Below, in pieces: positions 51,790-62,960 of a stretch of 64,000 bases of DNA. The stretch is from Polyangiaceae bacterium (GTDB lineage: Bacteria > Myxococcota_A > Polyangia > Polyangiales > Polyangiaceae). The position numbers and the translations under genes are program-made. Location: contig JBFXBK010000005.1 in assembly GCA_050183255.1 (NCBI GenBank), positions 1,203-65,202 of the forward strand. The letters are read 5' to 3'. The notes beneath the pieces are model-generated. The model made no database searches. It had not been told where the DNA came from and saw nothing but the letters and a program-made list of their open reading frames with translations. The first letter of the stretch is position 1; each line of letters begins with the position of its first letter.

Positions 51790-52845
51790 ATGGCGAAGCA
51801 ACCCCTCGCTGAGCCGCTGGCTGTCGTGGCCGGTCTACGCACGCCGTTCGTGCGTGCTGGGGGTCCGCTCGACAGCGTCGCCGCGGAGTCGCTGCTTGGG
51901 GGAGTGTTGAGCGAGCTGTTGGAGCGTTCGTCGCTCGCCCGGGGCGAGCTCGAGCTGTTGGTGTTGAGCCTGGCGGCGGAGGATGCGCTCGAGATCGACG
52001 GGCGAGAGGTCCTGCGGCGCTCGGTGTGTTCAGATCGAATTGCCGTACGGCAATATTTGCCGGGCTCATCCGATGACCTGCAGGCGCTCGAGTCGTTGGT
52101 CGAGGCGATGCAGGGTGGAGGAGTGGGCGTGGGTGCGCTGCTGGGCGCGCGGCTGCACCGTCGTGGTGTGCCCGAGCGCCTGTGGTGGCGGCTTTGGAAC
52201 TCGATCTGGGGCTTGCGTGCGACCCTGCTTCGCGTGCGCGCAGCCGGCGGCACTGGCTTCGAGTATCGGGAGGTGTTGCGCAGCTACGGCCTCGCTGCCC
52301 GCGCCTGGGGCGAGGGCCGCTTTGAAGATCAGGTAATGGCGGTTCTGATCCCGCGCGCCGCTGAGGTCGTCGCGGAGGATGACCTCCAAAAACACTTCCA
52401 GGCGGAAACGATGCGCAGCTTTGGTGTCGCTGGCTTGGTGCTGGCGACGGCGGAGCAAGTAGAATCGCGCTCGCTCCGCACTCTCGGTTGGATACGCGCC
52501 ATGGCGAGCGAGCGCGTAGGGGCAGGCGACGCGGCCCTCGCCGAGTTTGCCCTCGACGTGTTGGGAGGCCGCGAACCGAGCCTGGTGGAATACAGCGAGA
52601 TCACCGGCTGCGCCGACGCGCTGAGGCGTGGGCTACTCGCGTCAGGTGCGGAGTGGCTCGAGATGGCCGATCGCTTGAACGTGACGGGTGACAGCGCAGC
52701 GTTCGGTGATGCTGGGTGTGCGACTTTCCCCCGACAGATCATTCAGATGCTCCACGAGCTCGGGCGACGCGGGGGGGGAGTGGGGCTCTGCATTTCCGGC
52801 GGTGAACTGTCCACCGCCCTCGCGCTGGAGGTACCCGGTGGCTGA
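51790..52845 (+). CDS. Thiolase-fold (FadA/FadI-like) protein lacking the nucleophilic Cys and the catalytic His
   Basis: N-terminus LAVVAGLRTPFVRAGGPL is thiolase-like. Where FadA has NRLCGSSMQAL, this protein has RQYLPGSSDDLQAL (Cys to Pro). The C-terminal LNVTGDSAAFGDAGCATFPRQI...GLCISGG aligns with VNxNGGAIALGHPLGxSGAR...CIGGG (GHP to GDA). Confidence 0.7.
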   Translation: MAKQPLAEPLAVVAGLRTPFVRAGGPLDSVAAESLLGGVLSELLERSSLARGELELLVLSLAAEDALEIDGREVLRRSVCSDRIAVRQYLPGSSDDLQALESLVEAMQGGGVGVGALLGARLHRRGVPERLWWRLWNSIWGLRATLLRVRAAGGTGFEYREVLRSYGLAARAWGEGRFEDQVMAVLIPRAAEVVAEDDLQKHFQAETMRSFGVAGLVLATAEQVESRSLRTLGWIRAMASERVGAGDAALAEFALDVLGGREPSLVEYSEITGCADALRRGLLASGAEWLEMADRLNVTGDSAAFGDAGCATFPRQIIQMLHELGRRGGGVGLCISGGELSTALALEVPGG

Positions 52846-54784
52846 TGTGGATATGCAGTGCCTTGCGGAAACGAACGGCGCGCCCGAAGCGGTTGGTCCA
52901 GCTCTCCGTCTGGACGCCGACACCATGGAGGTCGTGCTGGGCCCCGGGTTCGAAGTGTTGGATGGCGCGCACGCGGGGGAACTCGCGTCGCGGGTCAGCC
53001 TGGCAGAGCAAGCTGGTGTTCGCGGGCTAGTGTTTCGGTTCTGCGGCGGTGAAGCGTCGCGCCTGCTTGACGCGGATCGCCTGGATGGGTTCGAGACGCC
53101 CGGCCAAGCTGAGGCCGCGCTTGAAGAGGCGACCCGCCTCGTCAGCCGCATCGAGCGAAGTCCGCTCTTGTGTATCGCGGTGATCGAGCGCGACTTGGGC
53201 GGGCCTAACCTGGAGTTGGCCCTTGCGTGTCGCCATCTTATTGCAGGTTCCGGGTTGCGTCTCGGGCTCGATGCTGCGTCCCTTGGGGTGGTACCCGCTC
53301 TCGGCGGAGCCCTGCGCCTCGCGGAGCGTCTCGGTGCACACGGCGCTCTGGCGCATTTGCTCCGCGGCGAGCTGGCAGACAGCGAGGTGGCGTGTGAAAT
53401 CGGGCTCGTCGACGAGTGCCTTGCCAGAGACGCGCTAGTCAGTGCCGCGCGGCAATGGGTGTCGAGGCCCCTGGTCGGCCGCCTTGGCGCACTTCGGGAC
53501 TGGGCGCGCGTTCGCCTTCCGTCTCGTGTATCAGCGGCGGAGATCGACAGCCGCAGCGACGTCGCGCGAGCGCTCAGAAGTCAGCTGCGTGGTGCGTTGT
53601 GGCGTGACGCTGGCCGTCAGCGCGCTGCGGCGGCGCAGGCGTTCTCGCGGTTGGTCTGCGGCGAGCAGAGCGCTGCCCTGCGTCGCCTTGCGCGGATGTT
53701 GGATGAACGCGCGCCTCGCGGTGGTTCCGCTCCCCGGGTCGCGTTGGTCGGTGGAGGCCGAGTGGGGGCGGAGCTCGCGCAGCGCACGCTGCTGGCGGGT
53801 GGTGTCCTAAGGCTGCTCGAACGGGACGAGAAGGCGCTGCTCCGCGGATCGCGGCGTGTGCGCGATGGTCTGCGCAAGTCGGGGCTGGACGGGGTGCGGC
53901 TGGAGCGCGCCATGGGCCACATGACTCACACCGCGGAGCTCTCACGGCTGGGGAGTTTCGATGTCGTGATCGAAGCGATCGCCGAAGAGTCAGTGGTCAA
54001 GCGTCGACTCCTCGACCAAGTCGCTGTGCAGCTCGCGCGTTCGACGGACGTCACGAAGACCCTGGTCACGACGAGCAGCACCCATGAGCTTTCCCGGCTC
54101 GCGTCAGGTCAGGTCACGAAGGTAGCGCTGGTTGGTCTGCACCTCGGGCTCGTGGATGAGCGTCCCTACGCGGAGCTGGTGCATGGGGATCCCGCCGCGA
54201 CGCACCAAATCGGGGCGCTCCTCAGCTCCCTTGGTTACCGTGTGGTAACGGTTTCGGATGTTGCGCCGGGCCTCTGCTTGCGTCTGGTGACTGCCTTCAT
54301 CGTCGAGGGGCTCGAGCTGGGACGTGAAGGCTTCGCGCTGAGCGACGTCGATCAAGCCGCGAGGAACTGGGGCTTTGAGCTGGGGCCTTCGGAGCTGCTT
54401 TCACGCCTCGGGCGGCGCACGTTCTCCGACTTGGTCGCGGTCGCGTTCCACCGTTCGCCTCGCAGATTTCCCGCCCCGGCGCGCTTGGAAGCCGTCTTCG
54501 AGGCGCAGCCGAAGCCGCGCCGTTGGTCGCGTCCCGCGAGCCCAGTACCCGTTGAGCGTCTTGTCTTGCGCCTCGTCGAAGAAGCTCGCAGTGCGCTCCA
54601 AGACGGCGTGGTCGCGCGACCAGAACTCGCTGATCTGGCCGCGGTCTGGGGCATGGGGTTCCCCGCATACCGTGGTGGCCCGCTACGCTTCGCGGAGACG
54701 CTCGGGGAGCGCAAGGTGCAGCGGCGACTGAGCCGCCTGGCGGCGTTGCACGGTCCGCGTTTCGAGCCGAGCGTCGTGCTGTAG
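52838..54784 (+). CDS. FadB/FadJ-like enoyl-CoA hydratase / 3-hydroxyacyl-CoA dehydrogenase fusion, divergent at several catalytic positions
   Basis: Crotonase-like DLGGPNLELALACRHLIA and GLDAASLGVVPALGG (canonical GLPE...). Rossmann motif ALVGGGRVGAELA. HAD-like GLHLGLVDERPYAELVHG and DVAPGLCLRL (canonical PGFxxNR). The GTG at 52838 overlaps the upstream stop (GTGGCTGA). Alternative starts at 52847 and 52853. Confidence 0.65.
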   Translation: MADVDMQCLAETNGAPEAVGPALRLDADTMEVVLGPGFEVLDGAHAGELASRVSLAEQAGVRGLVFRFCGGEASRLLDADRLDGFETPGQAEAALEEATRLVSRIERSPLLCIAVIERDLGGPNLELALACRHLIAGSGLRLGLDAASLGVVPALGGALRLAERLGAHGALAHLLRGELADSEVACEIGLVDECLARDALVSAARQWVSRPLVGRLGALRDWARVRLPSRVSAAEIDSRSDVARALRSQLRGALWRDAGRQRAAAAQAFSRLVCGEQSAALRRLARMLDERAPRGGSAPRVALVGGGRVGAELAQRTLLAGGVLRLLERDEKALLRGSRRVRDGLRKSGLDGVRLERAMGHMTHTAELSRLGSFDVVIEAIAEESVVKRRLLDQVAVQLARSTDVTKTLVTTSSTHELSRLASGQVTKVALVGLHLGLVDERPYAELVHGDPAATHQIGALLSSLGYRVVTVSDVAPGLCLRLVTAFIVEGLELGREGFALSDVDQAARNWGFELGPSELLSRLGRRTFSDLVAVAFHRSPRRFPAPARLEAVFEAQPKPRRWSRPASPVPVERLVLRLVEEARSALQDGVVARPELADLAAVWGMGFPAYRGGPLRFAETLGERKVQRRLSRLAALHGPRFEPSVVL

Positions 54785-54839
54785 TCGCAGCCACCAGAAA
54801 GTCGCTCAAGGGTCGACGTACGTAGCCGATCTCGGAGGC

Positions 54840-56234
54840 ATGCTGAACCCTTCCGTAGCGATAGTGGACGAAGACCCGCTCTCGCGAGAGCTACTCAGAC
54901 TGTGGCTCGAGGCGGCGGGGTACGACGTACTGGAACTCGCTTCGGCTGCGGAGCTCCTCTCACGTCCGATCCTGCCAGACATCTCATGTATCAGCCTGAC
55001 GCTGTCCGACATGCCAGGTGACGCGCTGATCGGAACCCTCAAGGCGCGCGACGCTGACCGTCCGGCGTTGCTGATCAGTTCGTTGCCAGCGAGCGACGCG
55101 GTCGCGCGGGCGCTTGGCTGCGGCGCCTACGATCTGCTCACGAAGCCGCTGGTTCGCGAGCAGGCACTCCTACGTGTGCGCCGTGCGGCTGAGGTGTGGC
55201 GACTGAAGTCGCGCGTACGCGCGGTGTGCGGCGCAGCGGATCTGCCGCCAACCTTGTGGGGGCGTAGTCCAGCGATCAAGGGCCTGCTTGCCGCCGTTGA
55301 CGATAAAATCTGCGGGGAAAATGCGGTGTTGCTGGTCGGTGAGGCGGGGAGTGGCCGCGCCGCCGTTGCTAGGTTCATTCACGTGCGTGGTCCACGATCA
55401 GGGGAGCGCTTCGTCTCGTTCAACTGTGCGGAGTTGCCACCGGCAAGGCACTTTGAAGAGCTGTTCGGAGGTCATGGCGGTGGCGCAGAGAGCCTGTTTG
55501 CGAGGGCCGGTGGCGGTGTGCTCTATATCCACGACATCGGGTGGTTAGCTGCAGAAGCCCAGCAGGAGCTGGTGGATGCGTTGCCCATCGACGGCTCGCC
55601 CCGCAGCACCCGCCGACCGAGCGGCGGGTGGGCCGTCGCCGCGGAGGCTGGGAACCCCGCGGCCTTCGTCGGAGCGCCGGTGCCGCGGCTCATCTGCGGG
55701 AGCACCGTCGAGCTCTCCGTACTCGCGCGCACGGGGCAGCTCACCGAACCCTTAGCGAGACTGCTCGAGGGTGCGACGGTCTCCCTGCCCCCGCTCCGCG
55801 AGCGGCGCGACGACATTCCAGAGCTGCTGTCCTACTGGGTGCGGCGCTTGGCTGCCGAGTCCGGTAAGGCGTCTCCACGCCTCTCCGCAAGTGCGCTCGA
55901 GGCGCTGTTCGAATACGCCTGGCCGGGAAACGTGCACGAGTTGAGCCAAGTCGTGCAGCGAGCCATCCTGGCGAGCGACGGGACTAGCATCCAGCTGAAC
56001 GACCTGCCCATTGCCGTGCGGCAAGCATTCGAGGAATCGGAGCGCGACAGCGGGCTCTTCGAGCCGGCGTGCGAACACGACGTGGTTCCACTGCGCGAGC
56101 TTGAACGACGCGCCATCGCCCACGCGCTGAAGGTCGCGGATGGCAATGTGGGTCAAGCGGCGCGATTGCTGGGGATCGGGCGTGCCACGCTCTACCGTCG
56201 CCTGGCGGAGCAAACCGACTCGCGAGTGGGCTAA
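54840..56234 (+). CDS. NtrC-family response regulator (REC-AAA+-Fis HTH) with a degenerate AAA+ domain
   Basis: The REC domain has VAIVDED, LSDMPG and LTKPL. AAA+ Walker A reads GEAGSGRAAV (Lys to Arg) and Walker B reads VLYIHDI (DE to HD). No GAFTGA is present (FEELFGGHGGGAESLF). PLRERRDDI is retained. The C-terminal HTH is GNVGQAARLLGIGRATLYRRL. Confidence 0.8.
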   Translation: MLNPSVAIVDEDPLSRELLRLWLEAAGYDVLELASAAELLSRPILPDISCISLTLSDMPGDALIGTLKARDADRPALLISSLPASDAVARALGCGAYDLLTKPLVREQALLRVRRAAEVWRLKSRVRAVCGAADLPPTLWGRSPAIKGLLAAVDDKICGENAVLLVGEAGSGRAAVARFIHVRGPRSGERFVSFNCAELPPARHFEELFGGHGGGAESLFARAGGGVLYIHDIGWLAAEAQQELVDALPIDGSPRSTRRPSGGWAVAAEAGNPAAFVGAPVPRLICGSTVELSVLARTGQLTEPLARLLEGATVSLPPLRERRDDIPELLSYWVRRLAAESGKASPRLSASALEALFEYAWPGNVHELSQVVQRAILASDGTSIQLNDLPIAVRQAFEESERDSGLFEPACEHDVVPLRELERRAIAHALKVADGNVGQAARLLGIGRATLYRRLAEQTDSRVG

Positions 56235-56355
56235 CTGGACTGCGGCTCCAGTATTGGCGCCGCGACAATCCACTCAGCGTCACCAGAGCCGGCCAAGGCT
56301 CTGACGACTTGCTATCCTGAGCCGTCGCGCGACCAAGCGTGAGAAGGAGCTCAGC

Positions 56356-57501
56356 GTGAAGCGAAGTCTGCTCAGTGAAGAACATCGAATTTTCGAGAAA
56401 GCGTTCCGCACCTTCGTCGAGCGTGAAGTGCTGCCGAAGCAGACCAGCTGGGCAGAGCGCGGGATGGTGGATCGTGAGACGTGGCTCGCCGCCGGCGCTG
56501 GTGGCTTCTTGTGTCCGTGGCTCGAAGAGGAGCACGGCGGTGCTGGAGGAGACTTCCTTCACTCCGCGATCGTGATCGAACAGCTCGCCTGCGCCTATGA
56601 GTCCGGGTTTGCCATGGGCCTGCACAGCGACATCGTCACTCCCTACATTCACGAGTTCGGGAGCCCGGAGCAGAAGCAGCGCTACCTCCCAGGTTGCGCG
56701 AGCGGCGAAGTGATCACCGCGATCGCGATGACAGAGCCAGGCACCGGATCCGACCTCAACGGCATCCAGACGACGGCGGTGCGTGACGGCGACTCTTACG
56801 TGATCAACGGCTCCAAGACGTTCATCTCGAACGGCATCTTGTGCGACGTGTGCATCGTCGCCGCGAAGACCGATACCAACCCGGACAACCGGCACCAGGC
56901 GCTTTCGCTTTTCCTCGTGGATGCAGGCACGAAGGGGTTCACCAAGGGCCAGAAGCTCAAGAAGATGGGCATGGCCAGTCAGGACACTTCGGAGCTGCAC
57001 TTCGAGGACTGCCGGGTGCCCAAGACCGCCTTGCTCGGCGAAGAGGGCATGGGCTTCTTGATGTTGACCCGGAAGCTTCAGCAGGAACGCCTGGTGGTGG
57101 CCATTGGCTCTCAGGCCAGCGCAGAGCAAATCCTCGCGGATACGCTGGCCTACGTCAAAGAGCGCACCGCGTTCGGCAAGCCGCTCAGCAAGTTTCAAAA
57201 CACGAAGTTCAAGTTGGCGGAGTGCGCGACCGAGGTTGAAGTCGGGCGCGCGTTCTTGGACCGACTGATCGCTGAACACATCGCGGGGGAGCACCTGGTG
57301 AAGGAGTGCTCCATGGCCAAGCTCTGGCAGACTGAGATGCTCGGCCGCGTGGTGGACGAGTGCCTGCAGCTGTTCGGCGGTTATGGCTACATGCTCGAGT
57401 ATCCGGTGACGCGCGCGTACATGGACGCGCGGGTTCAGCGTATCTTCGCGGGTACCAATGAGATCATGAAGGTGATCATCGCTCAACAGCTCGGGCTTTA
57501 G
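56356..57501 (+). CDS. Acyl-CoA dehydrogenase (long-chain ACAD-like)
   Basis: The GTG start is preceded by GAAGGAG. Motifs are AMTEPGTGSDL, LQQERL (helix-G Glu, as in LCAD/IVD-type enzymes) and DARVQRIFAGTNEIMK. Confidence 0.9.
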   Translation: MKRSLLSEEHRIFEKAFRTFVEREVLPKQTSWAERGMVDRETWLAAGAGGFLCPWLEEEHGGAGGDFLHSAIVIEQLACAYESGFAMGLHSDIVTPYIHEFGSPEQKQRYLPGCASGEVITAIAMTEPGTGSDLNGIQTTAVRDGDSYVINGSKTFISNGILCDVCIVAAKTDTNPDNRHQALSLFLVDAGTKGFTKGQKLKKMGMASQDTSELHFEDCRVPKTALLGEEGMGFLMLTRKLQQERLVVAIGSQASAEQILADTLAYVKERTAFGKPLSKFQNTKFKLAECATEVEVGRAFLDRLIAEHIAGEHLVKECSMAKLWQTEMLGRVVDECLQLFGGYGYMLEYPVTRAYMDARVQRIFAGTNEIMKVIIAQQLGL

Positions 57502-59712: not shown

Positions 59713-60486
59713 ATGGCGGATCTACTCAGGGAAGACTCACTACTGTTCTCGCTCAAGGGTCTACAGCGCATGGAAAAGGAGCGGGTGGACCGCGAACTGC
59801 AGGAGCGAGAGCAGCGCCTGGCCGACCAGCACCAGCGCCGAGTCCTTGAAGAGCAACGCCAGCGCGACGCTGAGAAGCGCCGTACCGAGGCGGAAGCCGC
59901 GCGCCGTGAAGCGGAGCGCCTGCGTCGTGAGGAAGAAGACGCCCGCCTCGAGGCGCTGAAGCGTGCCGAGTGCGAGCGCGTACTACAGGAGTCGAAGCTG
60001 CGCGCAGAGCTGGCTGTGGCTGAGGCGGAGCGCGCCCATGATGTCAAGCTTGCTGAAATCCGTACGGATAATGAGAAACGTATCGCGAAAGTAGCTGCAA
60101 GCCTGTGTGCTGGCCTCGCCATTTTCGTAACCTGCGGCTCTCTTGGGCTCTACTTCGGCAAGCTGGCGCCTGAGCACAGCCAGGCGGTGGCGCTGCTGCA
60201 GCGGCAAGCGGACACCGCCAAGTCCGACTCCAAGCAGCTGCGTGAAGACCTCGATGAAGTCAAGGCTCAGCTCCAGACGGAACAAGCAGAGAGCGCACGG
60301 CTGAAGCGTCAGCGAGATGAAGCTCAACGTCAGCTCTCGCAGGCAGATGATGGCAAACCCAGCTTGTCGCCCGCAGAAAAGCCGCGAGGAAAAGGCTCTG
60401 CGACTCCGCTCGCGCGCAATGCTAGCGTGACCCCCAAGTGCAAACCGGGAGAGAGCTACGACCCGATGAACTTCTGCCTGCCCTAG
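59713..60486 (+). CDS. Coiled-coil membrane-anchored protein (charged ER/K-rich helix, one TM, second coiled coil)
   Basis: ERVDRELQEREQRLADQHQRRVLEEQRQRDAEKRRTEAEAARREAERLRREEEDARLEALKR, then the TM segment VAASLCAGLAIFVTCGSLGLYF, then a Q/E/L-rich helix. Confidence 0.65.
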   Translation: MADLLREDSLLFSLKGLQRMEKERVDRELQEREQRLADQHQRRVLEEQRQRDAEKRRTEAEAARREAERLRREEEDARLEALKRAECERVLQESKLRAELAVAEAERAHDVKLAEIRTDNEKRIAKVAASLCAGLAIFVTCGSLGLYFGKLAPEHSQAVALLQRQADTAKSDSKQLREDLDEVKAQLQTEQAESARLKRQRDEAQRQLSQADDGKPSLSPAEKPRGKGSATPLARNASVTPKCKPGESYDPMNFCLP

Positions 60487-60498
60487 CAGAGCTTCGAC

Positions 60499-61680
60499 TC
60501 ATTTCCTGCAGGAATCAAGGTGACTGAGCAGCCGTTCGAGGCGCAAGTCGAGGGCGGCCAAGTGCTCGGGCGAGAGTATCGGTGCTAGGGGATCCTTCGC
60601 CAACGAGCGTGCGAGGCGCTGCCCCAAGCGCTGAGCCGGCGGAACGCGAGGTCCCATCGCTCTCAAGTTTTTCACCAGCTCTAACGGGAAGCTGCAGACG
60701 TGCTCGAGGTCAGCGTCCAGCGCGAGCTTTCGCTGCATCCGCCAGTCAGCAAAGCCGGCGCCGTTGTCGAGAAATATCAGCGGGCCGCCCTGGTCGAGGA
60801 GCAAAGTATTCCCGCCGGACCAGCGATCCGTGTTGTCCAGAAGGTAGTCGAAGGCGGTGAGTTCTTCGAGCGCCGAGACCTGCGGCTTGATTGCCGCAGG
60901 GATTTGCTCCGGCGACCACTTTGGCCACGCGCGCGGCACATCGAGCGAGTACAGACGCTTCGTGTGCCAGGCGATTACCGCGCCGCGGACCGTGTCGGGC
61001 TCTGGCTCTTTCAGCTCGGTGTCAAAGCGCTCGAGGAACTTCTGGTCAGCCCCACTGGCGATGAGTAGCTTGCGCAACGCTGCCCGTGGCAGCGCCCGGC
61101 CCACGACCGGTGCCGTGCGTGCGCAGCCGAGTAGGCGATCCAGGTGGTAGGCGACGATCTCACTGCGGAAGTTCGTGGCAGATTTCTTCTGGTCTGCTTT
61201 CAGTACCGCGCGGTAACCATCCTCGAAGTAGAGGCGGATGGTGACCGTGGACCCACCTTTGTTCTGCGTCGCCTTGGTGATCGAGGCGTAGGACATGCGA
61301 CGCAGCCAGCCGCCGTCTTCCGTCACGTCGATGGGGCCTCGGGCGTCGCCCTTGATGACGTGAGGGGGATTTTGGGTGAGGGAAGTCGGGACCTTGCCCC
61401 GAGGGATCGGCGCCACCGCGGTCGAGAGCGACGGCGGGCTCTTCGGAGCCGCTGGGGTCGCCGCGTCGTTCCCCTCCCCCCCAAACCCGCTGGCGGCGGC
61501 TGAGATCGCGCCTCTGGGTGCAGCTACGGGCGCTGATGCGAGCGGTGCCTCGAGCGAGGCGGGATCTCCTGCGCTGACGTTGGCCTCTCCCGAGGGGTCA
61601 CGCTCGCACCCAAGCAGGGCGAGGCACCACGTGAGGCTCAGACCGCGCCAGACGGCTCTATTGCTTCGCTTCGTTCGCAC
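60499..61680 (-). CDS. Lipoprotein with a Fam20-like (secretory-pathway kinase) domain
   Basis: With the GTG at complement 61678-61680, the N-terminus is (V)RTKRSNRAVWRGLSLTWCLALLGC (lipobox), followed by an Ala/Pro linker. Next come YRAVLKAD, RSEIVAYHLDRLLGCARTAPVVGR, LTAFDYLLDNTDRW, LIFLDNGAGF and HLAALDLRLERLLSHLDSC. This is the same motif order as metazoan Fam20C. The track start at 61770 would overlap the divergent gene. Confidence 0.65.
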   Translation of the reverse strand: MRTKRSNRAVWRGLSLTWCLALLGCERDPSGEANVSAGDPASLEAPLASAPVAAPRGAISAAASGFGGEGNDAATPAAPKSPPSLSTAVAPIPRGKVPTSLTQNPPHVIKGDARGPIDVTEDGGWLRRMSYASITKATQNKGGSTVTIRLYFEDGYRAVLKADQKKSATNFRSEIVAYHLDRLLGCARTAPVVGRALPRAALRKLLIASGADQKFLERFDTELKEPEPDTVRGAVIAWHTKRLYSLDVPRAWPKWSPEQIPAAIKPQVSALEELTAFDYLLDNTDRWSGGNTLLLDQGGPLIFLDNGAGFADWRMQRKLALDADLEHVCSFPLELVKNLRAMGPRVPPAQRLGQRLARSLAKDPLAPILSPEHLAALDLRLERLLSHLDSCRK

Positions 61681-61709
61681 CTCGACGGCCGCGAAGCTAT
61701 CATCGCGCC

Positions 61710-62960
61710 GTGCAACACACGAGCCCTCAGGAGTCGTCGACGCTGACGCGCGGCTCCCTCGGTGCGGCACGACTCTTGGGTATTGGTGTGCTGACGTTTG
61801 CGGGTGTGTACGTTGGCGGGAAGCTGCGCGCGTCCGATAGCCAAGCGCCTGCTCCTTCGAGCCAAGAACCTTCTGTGGCGTCTGCGGTCGGGAGCGAGCA
61901 GCCGGCCCGACTTCAGCCGCCAGGCGGCGGTGTCATCGAGCTACGGCCCCACGGGCCGCGGGTGAACCTGAACAGCGCGATCGAGCTCGACTTCTCCGCG
62001 GCAGTGGAACGCTCGAGCGTGGAGGCAGCCCTCGAGAGCGTGCCTCCCATCGATTGGCGAGTGAGCTGGCCGAAGCCGACCCGTGTGCGCCTGGAACCCA
62101 AGGCGCCCCTCAAGAGCGGAACACTGTATCGCGTCATCGCTGGTGGTCGCTTGCAGGATGGCTCCGCGCTGGCGAGCTTCCTTGGTGAATTCCGCACGGA
62201 AGTACCGGCGCCGAAAGACGTGGTGAAGGGCAACGGCGGCAACCTGATCCTGAGCTTCGATGACGGTCCCCGGGGTACGCTCCGAACCCGTCGCATCCTG
62301 GAGTTGCTCGAGCGCTACCACGCCAAGGCGCTTTTTTTCCCTGTGGCACAGAACCTCGAGCGCTACCCGAAGTGGATCGAGCAGGTGGAGGCAAAAGGGC
62401 ATCGAGTGTGCAATCACAGCTACACCCACCCGAACCTCGCGAGTCGCGGGATCTCCGACGCTGGCCTGCGCCGCGAGATCGAGAAGGGGGCCGGGTACGG
62501 TCGCTGCAGGTTGTTCCGTCCGCCGATGATGGCTCACGACGAGCGGAGCGATCGGGTGGCGAAGCAGCTCGGGCTCAGCGTCTTCTTGTGGGACATCGAC
62601 ACTCGGGATTGGGAGGAGATCCCCGCGGATGAAATCTACAACCGCGTCTTGCGGGCGGTGGAACCCGGTAGCGTGGTGCTGTTTCACCTCCAGGCCCGGC
62701 GCACCCTGCGTGCACTCAGGGGGCTGCTGCCGCGCCTGGTCAGGGAAGGGTACGTGCTCTCCTGGGATCCTCGGGACGTCGACCAGGCGGCCCGGCCGCG
62801 TTTCGGAGTGGGACGCAGTGGCACCTGGCTTTCCGCCCCAGCTGCGGCGCGGGAGCGCTGGCTGGCGAACTTCGCTCCTGGAGTCGCCGAGGCGCAACCG
62901 ATCGAGGTGTCTGGGGGGCCGGCGCCTTGGCCGTTTCCGGTCGGAGAAGCCGAGCCGTAG
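61710..62960 (+). CDS. Polysaccharide deacetylase (CE4 / NodB homology) with an N-terminal TM anchor and an Ig-like region
   Basis: TM segment LLGIGVLTFAGVYVGG. CE4 motifs are ILSFDDGP, CNHSYTHP, LFRPPMM, LWDIDTRDW and VVLFH. Confidence 0.85.
   Translation: MQHTSPQESSTLTRGSLGAARLLGIGVLTFAGVYVGGKLRASDSQAPAPSSQEPSVASAVGSEQPARLQPPGGGVIELRPHGPRVNLNSAIELDFSAAVERSSVEAALESVPPIDWRVSWPKPTRVRLEPKAPLKSGTLYRVIAGGRLQDGSALASFLGEFRTEVPAPKDVVKGNGGNLILSFDDGPRGTLRTRRILELLERYHAKALFFPVAQNLERYPKWIEQVEAKGHRVCNHSYTHPNLASRGISDAGLRREIEKGAGYGRCRLFRPPMMAHDERSDRVAKQLGLSVFLWDIDTRDWEEIPADEIYNRVLRAVEPGSVVLFHLQARRTLRALRGLLPRLVREGYVLSWDPRDVDQAARPRFGVGRSGTWLSAPAAARERWLANFAPGVAEAQPIEVSGGPAPWPFPVGEAEP

Follow-up and report, generated by a model that had tools for sequence, protein, structure and literature searches.

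A predicted lipoprotein with a Fam20-type kinase domain from a Polyangiaceae bacterium belongs to a large bacterial family

Layout of the Fam20-like gene and its product

The window analysed here, a stretch of 64,000 nucleotides from a Polyangiaceae bacterium (a soil-type myxobacterium), carries on its reverse strand a gene for a predicted lipoprotein of 393 amino acids (aa), which the original prediction, made from the DNA letters, had described as carrying a metazoan-type Fam20 domain. Most extracellular protein phosphorylation in animals is the work of Fam20 kinases, which also act at a control step of proteoglycan synthesis. Sequence, profile and predicted structure agree in supporting the assignment of the bacterial protein to the Fam20 kinase family with its catalytic set intact, which raises two questions: what is phosphorylated outside the bacterial cytoplasm, and where the animal enzymes came from. 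The features of the gene are as follows.

60499..61680 (-), coding sequence of the 393-aa Fam20-like lipoprotein, with its stop codon at 60499..60501 (list of open reading frames (ORFs), PF06702 match)
61606..61680 (-), predicted lipoprotein signal peptide, residues 1-25 (basic n-region RTKRSNR, hydrophobic core, lipobox L-L-G-C)
61606..61608 (-), Cys25, predicted acylated lipobox Cys (sequence; the Cys column is kept in the family alignment)
61396..61605 (-), Ala/Pro/Ser/Gly-rich tether, residues 26-95, predicted to be disordered (composition, low predicted local distance difference test (pLDDT) values)
60502..61395 (-), Fam20 kinase domain with N-lobe and C-lobe, residues 96-393 (profile match, pLDDT, Foldseek)
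61198..61200 (-), K161, putative beta3 ATP-binding Lys (invariant in 39 homologues; aligns with hydra Fam20 K133)
61159..61161 (-), E174, putative alphaC Glu (invariant; aligns with hydra E157)
60826..60828 (-), D285, putative catalytic-base Asp in N-T-D-R-W (invariant; aligns with hydra D299)
60766..60768 (-), D305, putative metal-binding Asp in L-D-N-G (invariant; aligns with hydra D318 and mouse Fam20B D309)
60694..60696 (-), C329, predicted disulfide partner of C391 (aligns with hydra C341)
60508..60510 (-), C391, predicted disulfide partner of C329 (aligns with hydra C400)

The longest ORF of the gene spans 423 aa and opens at an upstream GTG at 61770. The GTG at 61680, which gives 393 aa, fits as the start codon: the same start is found in a 99%-identical metagenomic protein (P0001), and it agrees with the N-termini of the orthologues. 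Read from there, the protein begins with MRTKRSNRAVWRGLSLTWCLALLG followed by C25, which satisfies the lipoprotein pattern of signal peptidase II (basic n-region, hydrophobic core and a lipobox Cys within the first ~40 residues) and is kept in homologues. The bacterial Fam20-like family appears to consist mostly of lipoproteins: a strict PROSITE-like lipobox was found in 68 of the 124 N-terminally complete members, and the 25 inspected among the 56 members lacking it mostly showed a Cys behind a hydrophobic stretch or an N-terminal transmembrane helix. Two homologues, P0018 (671 aa) and P0020 (665 aa), have N-terminal extensions of ~300 residues with the lipobox (FLVFVVGC) in an internal position, and their start codons are probably miscalled. 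The tether consists of Ala (18), Pro (11), Ser (9) and Gly (8) at 46 of its 70 positions, varies in length and aligns poorly among homologues. Overlapping ORFs of 90-150 aa lie over the kinase gene on both strands (60582..61840; for example 60700..61068 (+) and 61376..61840 (+)); they are typical of DNA with 65% GC and are not genes.

Family assignment and predicted fold

The motifs on which the original prediction was based were all found in the translation at verified codon positions, namely LALLGC (Cys25), YRAVLKAD (K161), RSEIVAYHLDRLLGCARTAPVVGR (E174), LTAFDYLLDNTDRW (D285), LIFLDNGAGF (D305) and HLAALDLRLERLLSHLDSC (C391), and the Fam20C strings with which it had compared them, including HLEALDRRLRVVLKAVRDC, were correct when aligned with human Fam20C. 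The hidden Markov model search that it had proposed gave a significant match of the protein to PF06702 (Fam20C; 49.9 bits against a gathering cut-off of 26.8, E 4.1e-13, residues 268-392). The sole other Pfam match was to FAM198 / GASK1 (PF15051), a secretory-pathway kinase-like family, which remained below its threshold (19.6 against 25 bits, E 4.4e-4) and was restricted to residues 172-285, a weak similarity in the N-lobe; precomputed PF15051 matches are also found in several homologues. Down to E 10, no CotH, HipA, Four-jointed or PI3/4-kinase model matched in the Pfam scan, and NCBIfam held no model for the protein, its best match being meaningless at 12 bits.

Searched as a single sequence against the PDB by phmmer, the protein found hydra Fam20B first (E 2.8e-11), together with Fam20A, Fam20C and C. 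elegans Fam20. A profile of the 39 bacterial homologues matched human Fam20C (5yh3_C) over both lobes (E 5.7e-40), with profile positions 100-374 aligned to residues 108-430. Animal Fam20 proteins scored 112-142 bits against this profile, with human Fam20C at 141.6, zebrafish Fam20C at 132.4 and hydra Fam20B at 126.2 bits. Judged by the PF06702, phmmer and family-profile scores, the resemblance of the predicted protein to Fam20 is far beyond chance.

The predicted structure points to the same family, as the original prediction had anticipated. An AlphaFold2 model computed on the 39-homologue alignment reached a mean pLDDT of 84.8 and a predicted template modelling score of 0.79, with pLDDT values mostly >90 from about residue 95 on and <50 for residues 24-72. 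The top 28 Foldseek matches of the model in the PDB were all Fam20A, Fam20B or Fam20C chains (E 5.6e-14 to 2e-10, TM-scores 0.5-0.6), followed by a gap of seven orders of magnitude and then by SidJ and PI3K at E >2e-3. No CotH structure stood among the 50 Foldseek matches listed (28 of them with E <= 0.001). CotH, the spore-coat atypical kinase, is likewise a bacterial kinase of the Fam20/CotH group and a distant relative of Fam20C, but it is set apart from the present protein by the absence of any match in the Pfam and Foldseek results given above. In addition, CotH is no lipoprotein and acts within the cytoplasm of the mother cell.

Active site and comparison with animal Fam20 enzymes

Residues were mapped by alignment with full-length hydra Fam20B, numbered as in PMC5865150, from which the roles of hydra K133, of D299 as the catalytic base and of the position shared by ceFam20 Glu218 and PKA Glu91 are taken. 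The Asp residues of N-T-D-R-W and L-D-N-G coincide with hydra D299 and D318, as the original prediction required of a true Fam20 domain, and E174 was assigned to the ceFam20 Glu218 / PKA Glu91 position by the motif that it shares with hydra, ceFam20 being outside the alignment. Thirteen residues are invariant in the 39 homologues (K161, E174, G185, W238, F277, D278, N283, D285, R286, G289, N291, D305 and R380) at a mean column identity of 30%. The Gly-rich loop G142/G143 also belongs to the catalytic set of the family, G142 being nearly invariant in the same alignment.

Hydra Fam20B (5xom/5xoo) shares with the bacterial protein the fold, the catalytic residues (hydra/bacterial K133/K161, E157/E174, D299/D285 and D318/D305) and its nature as an exported enzyme, and it is the best single-sequence match in the PDB, but identity between the two is only ~20-23% and the type II Golgi anchor of Fam20B contrasts with the predicted lipoprotein signal of the bacterial N-terminus. 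Of the four disulfides common to Fam20B and Fam20C (PMC5865150), the hydra C341-C400 bond has a predicted bacterial counterpart in C329-C391, while the other three sit in Cys-rich inserts found only in the animal proteins. Both C329 and C391 are retained throughout the Polyangiaceae-type clade, and distant clades have lost the two jointly, as would be expected of a real disulfide and thus of an oxidising compartment. Together, the lipobox Cys and a Cys pair homologous to a Fam20 disulfide fit a predicted extracytoplasmic, lipid-anchored location.

None of the ten residues of the Gal-Xyl (galactose-xylose) pocket of hydra Fam20B (T114, Q115, Y148, E149, G150, Y151, Y214, Y253, H301 and K321) is kept. 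Five are replaced (T114 by S, Q115 by T, Y253 by S, H301 by W and K321 by A), and the other five (Y148-Y151 and Y214) lie in inserts that the bacterial protein lacks. One of these is the 13-residue N-lobe insert of animal Fam20, which carries Y148-E149-G150-Y151 and D152 in hydra and is absent from all bacterial sequences aligned. As the pocket is absent, the acceptor is not expected to be the Gal-Xyl linker of animal Fam20B, and orthology to Fam20B, implied by the automatic JGI name 'glycosaminoglycan xylosylkinase' for the homologue P0010, was rejected. The catalytic loop differs as well, reading D-R-W-S-G-G-N in the bacterial protein against D-R-H-H-Y-E in animals, with an invariant Asn (N291) six residues past the catalytic Asp. 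All of the 183 bacterial-type sequences retrieved have N-x-D-R, with W, F or Y as the next residue in nearly all of them, and H-H occurred only in fish Fam20C.

Fam20C, the Golgi casein kinase (5yh3, 5yh0, 4kqa), gave the highest profile score and the top Foldseek matches and shares the motif series FKP, AEIAA[FY]HLDR, FD[FY]L.[GD]N.DR, LDNG.GF and ALD.RL...C; it differs in having the N-lobe insert with the equivalent of ceFam20 E213 and the Cys-rich inserts. The description 'metazoan-type' therefore does not hold in detail, given the lack of the animal N-lobe insert, of three of the four disulfides and of the Fam20B sugar pocket. By sequence, the protein is a minimal bacterial-type Fam20 and not an orthologue of the xylosylkinase. 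As a small model with a single predicted disulfide and no glycosylation, bacterial Fam20 should ease structural and mechanistic study.

Distribution of the bacterial family

The Fam20-like protein is no oddity and, by sequence comparison, is a member of a large bacterial family. A word-indexed search found 42 relatives, the named ones coming from metagenome-assembled genomes (MAGs) of Polyangiaceae, Myxococcota or 'Deltaproteobacteria'. An exhaustive profile search of 1.84 billion cluster representatives returned 4110 proteins at E <= 1e-3, of which 1590 reached E <= 1e-10 and 477 reached E <= 1e-30. The family comprises >150 clusters at 50% identity; the best 150 matches all scored >225 bits, and N-x-D-R-[WFY], the bacterial motif, was present in each. 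When one genome was scanned for every GTDB species, 40 loci were obtained, all in MAGs and distributed over Polyangiaceae, Polyangia, Sandaracinaceae, Sandaracinus, Kofleriaceae and other Myxococcota, together with four weak matches in Acidobacteriota; the scan used two peptide patterns, starting from the 19 closer sequences, so divergent members may have been missed. Recognition by Pfam was best in the Polyangiaceae-type clade, fell to 32 bits in a Sandaracinaceae-type member (P0033) and failed for most members of a third clade, which scored below the cut-off or had no match. From these scores it follows that much of the wider bacterial family lies below the Pfam cut-off and is without any annotation.

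The Acidobacteriota MAGs encode secreted proteins of 305 aa (L042:7602-8519 (+), similar in L043-L045) with AEIAAYHLDRLLG, N-V-D-R-N and L-I-D-H, that is, with the same alphaC and catalytic motifs, and with only sub-threshold Pfam matches (PI3_PI4_kinase, HipA_2, Fam20C). Judged by these motifs, they may represent a still more distant secreted kinase family.

Relationship to animal Fam20 kinases

Fam20 has been treated as an animal family in the literature. A 2021 review of Fam20 and a 2018 paper on structure and evolution cover animals only, a survey of the Legionella kinome places FAM20 among 'eukaryotic- or Metazoa-specific' clusters, and CotH is the only bacterial relative of Fam20 discussed in the literature that we found. 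A preprint of May 2026 ('Origins of eukaryotic metabolism') names FAM20B as one of five contributions that Myxococcota may have made to endomembrane functions; the point takes one sentence, and the preprint cautions that the signal is not always unequivocal. The original prediction knew of no characterised bacterial member, and none was found in open-access papers and bioRxiv preprints; Myxococcota homologues of FAM20B had already been mentioned in that sentence. The protein is not categorically new, as Pfam already recognises the domain and the preprint had already noticed the Myxococcota link.

An unrooted neighbour-joining tree was computed from 300 well-occupied columns of 62 bacterial sequences and of eight from animals, six of them Fam20B and two Fam20C. 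The comparison with metazoan Fam20 suggested by the original prediction set the animal Fam20B and Fam20C sequences apart from all bacterial ones in 100/100 bootstraps, with mean pairwise distances of 0.86 among animals, 1.54 among bacteria and 2.27 from one group to the other. The Polyangiaceae-type proteins were the bacterial group closest to animals. Animals, the Polyangiaceae-type clade and the remaining bacterial clades were each monophyletic, and the topology of an unrooted tree with such a three-way split does not reveal the direction of transfer; the 86% support for 'animals + Polyangiaceae-type' expresses merely the monophyly of the remaining bacterial clades. A transfer from crown-group animals after the split of Fam20B and Fam20C is excluded for the taxa sampled. 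On these sequences, the best-supported relationship is that the bacterial family is a sister to the animal Fam20 kinases and did not arise from crown-group animals. A bacterial source is favoured, though not proved, by the larger diversity among bacteria and by reports that restrict Fam20 to animals. A large, deep-branching bacterial family with the same active site and a simpler architecture is a concrete candidate for the origin of the animal Fam20 enzymes.

Genomic context

The gene is native to the bacterium, as indicated by its composition and synteny. Its GC content (65.4%) and its GC content at third codon positions (GC3, 77.4%) are as in the neighbouring genes, no paralogue is present within the window, and the gene order (thiolase, FadB-like, sigma-54 regulator, acyl-CoA dehydrogenase, TonB-dependent receptor, coiled-coil protein, Fam20-like, deacetylase) recurs on contigs of Polyangiaceae MAGs of up to 896 kb (L007, 579 kb; L009, 896 kb). 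The two immediate neighbours are as follows.

61710..62960 (+), membrane-anchored carbohydrate esterase family 4 (CE4, NodB-type) polysaccharide deacetylase with a Big_5 domain, divergent neighbour and possible functional partner (PF01522, 79 bits)
59713..60486 (+), 257-aa coiled-coil protein with a central transmembrane segment and a C-terminal Cys pair C-x(10)-C, convergent neighbour (ORF)

The closest NCBIfam models of the deacetylase are PdaB, NodB and PgdA. By tblastn, among the 22 Polyangiaceae-type loci that could be assessed, it lies directly upstream of the Fam20-like gene and divergent from it in 15 and no more than 5.4 kb away in a further two. The pairing extends to deacetylases of only 36-40% identity and remains in L018, L022 and L034 despite a changed other flank. 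The gap between the two genes measures 29 bp in the window (61681..61709) and 26-80 bp in related loci. With predicted divergent starts only 29 bp apart, either one start is wrongly placed or the promoters reach into the coding regions.

The 257-aa neighbour, in which highly charged coiled-coil segments flank the single transmembrane helix, has no significant Pfam or NCBIfam family. Its homologues adjoin the Fam20-like gene in L001 and L006-L010 (six locus records, of which L001 and L007 share a contig), with weaker matches in L015-L017 and L021; in all, the convergent arrangement is kept in about ten loci.

Other partners were found outside the Polyangiaceae-type clade. In the Sandaracinaceae-type clade, a phosphodiester glycosidase of the NAGPA family (120 bits) is a neighbour in nine loci (L002, L028-L032, L035, L048), with its gene co-directional in L002 and L048 and divergent in L029, and DUF2079 membrane proteins lie near the kinase gene in seven loci. 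Three loci of this clade have a TLC-family exchange transporter for nucleoside tri- and diphosphates (PF03219, 65 bits, cut-off 21) at 2.5-5 kb from the Fam20-like gene (L002:4142-5578 (-), L048:3146-4546 (-) and L033:9260-10519 (-)). In principle, such a transporter could make nucleotide available beyond the cytoplasm; a role as general ATP supply was rejected, as it is present in these three loci only and not in the window.

In the third clade (N-W-D-R-W-S, no Pfam match), the kinase-like gene overlaps the stop codon of a 108-aa ORF, which itself follows the gene of a Cytochrom_C_asm membrane protein. This layout was seen at L046:3756-6753 (+) and at the place of P0042, a small HATPase_c protein following in L046 (P0037) and not at P0042, and it looks like a separate operon context. 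One conserved operon for the whole family was rejected, since the three clades have different neighbours and no single defining partner.

Proposed function and alternative explanations

The sequence and the model indicate with high probability an exported enzyme of the Fam20 fold with an intact kinase site. Fold, residue set, export signal and breadth of the family were computed; from them we infer phosphotransfer, compartment, disulfide and acceptor in the following form. The signal peptide would be cut at the lipobox and Cys25 acylated, and the disordered Ala/Pro tether of ~70 residues would give the kinase domain mobility in the periplasm or at the cell surface. Nucleotide would be bound by the Gly-rich loop G142-G143 and the K161-E174 pair, a metal would be positioned by D305 and probably also by N291, and with D285 as the base the gamma-phosphate would be moved to a hydroxyl group, while a C329-C391 disulfide would stabilise the C-lobe in an oxidising compartment. 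The preferred acceptor would be a sugar hydroxyl of an envelope or matrix glycan of the N-acetylglucosamine type that is also processed by the divergent CE4 deacetylase. To this reading as a whole, a lipid-anchored extracytoplasmic enzyme with a complete and probably active Fam20-type kinase domain, a glycan acceptor and membership of a bacterial sister family, we give an even chance. The choice of a glycan rather than a protein acceptor is tentative: the CE4 deacetylase of the Polyangiaceae-type clade and the phosphodiester glycosidase of the Sandaracinaceae-type clade offer weak support for a glycan substrate, and two different carbohydrate-active partners in two clades justify a modest lean in that direction.

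Several observations weigh against this proposal. We know of no ATP pool in the Gram-negative periplasm, which makes the phosphate donor its main unexplained point. An unrelated housekeeping gene, that of an acyl-CoA dehydrogenase, is also conserved on the other side of the kinase gene in most of the same loci, and the adjacency of the deacetylase could be plain synteny; moreover, at least four well-flanked loci (L013, L020, L026, L027) have no deacetylase, and the third, distant clade occurs in another context, with a Cytochrom_C_asm protein and a small ORF. The second acidic residue specific to Fam20 (ceFam20 E213, hydra D152), which pairs with the Lys and matters for Fam20C activity (PMC5865150), is missing along with the N-lobe insert, and kinase folds with intact residues can carry out other chemistry, as in SelO and SidJ.

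An extracytoplasmic protein kinase like Fam20C, acting on Ser/Thr of proteins that the bacterium secretes or has in its periplasm or on its surface, or of proteins of prey or matrix, is a doubtful alternative that would account for the higher family-profile scores of human and zebrafish Fam20C compared to hydra Fam20B and for the complete lack of the Fam20B sugar pocket, and it would find possible substrates in two conserved neighbours, the coiled-coil membrane protein and a MYXO-CTERM surface protein. However, the differences in score between Fam20A, Fam20B and Fam20C are small and the single-sequence phmmer search puts hydra Fam20B first; protein specificity arose with dimerisation late in animals, the basal animal enzymes being glycan kinases (PMC5865150), and the carbohydrate-active neighbours occur in two separate clades. 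It is improbable that the kinase fold serves other work, as an AMPylase, glutamylase, nucleotidyl transferase or pseudokinase scaffold or with a donor other than ATP. The missing acidic partner of the beta3 Lys would fit such a role, a classical kinase is awkward with no known periplasmic ATP pool, divergent chemistry in kinase folds has precedents in SelO, SidJ and Fam20A, and SidJ is, weakly, the next structural neighbour after the Fam20 chains, but none of the canonical phosphotransfer residues, the catalytic-base Asp among them, varies across a very diverse family, as expected of a true kinase. Our favoured order thus places a glycan acceptor before a protein acceptor, and the latter before non-kinase chemistry.

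The description of Fam20 as animal-specific and an ORF reaching 30 codons further upstream could also suggest an artefact, that is, eukaryotic contamination of the assembly, a gene acquired very recently from an animal or a wrong start codon for a cytoplasmic protein. This is highly improbable in view of a GC and GC3 content as in the neighbours, the same gene order on the long Polyangiaceae contigs, the 40 loci in genomes of Myxococcota and Acidobacteriota, a clade of animal Fam20B and Fam20C that excludes all bacterial sequences in every bootstrap, and the conservation of the bacterial-only N-x-D-R-W motif and of the lipobox. Contamination or recent transfer was rejected on composition and synteny, as far as the present data go.

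The bacterial family lends itself to asking whether macromolecules outside the inner membrane of Gram-negative bacteria are phosphorylated and, if so, with which phosphate donor. A broader scenario, which we consider rather unlikely, is that the animal Fam20 secretory-pathway kinases descend from Polyangia-like lipoprotein kinases that phosphorylate an envelope glycan or protein, in a nucleotide-dependent manner, outside the cytoplasmic membrane. If true, a myxobacterial origin and extracytoplasmic phosphorylation would imply a dedicated extracytoplasmic supply of ATP, for which the TLC-type transporter of some Sandaracinaceae-type loci would be a candidate.

Other genes of the window

At 51790..57501 (+), the sizes of the ORFs match those of the thiolase, the FadB-like protein (enoyl-CoA hydratase/3-hydroxyacyl-CoA dehydrogenase) and the sigma-54 response regulator that the annotation of L001 has at these positions, and these ORFs are probably unrelated to the kinase. 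The acyl-CoA dehydrogenase, the only one compared, is 94% identical to the copy in L001. A protein of 291-295 aa with no Pfam family lies beside the deacetylase in two distantly related loci (L001:5581-6456 (-) and L004:5796-6683 (-)); the L001 copy has a weak MYXO-CTERM sorting signal, and its counterpart in the window, after ~63000, would extend past the 3' end.

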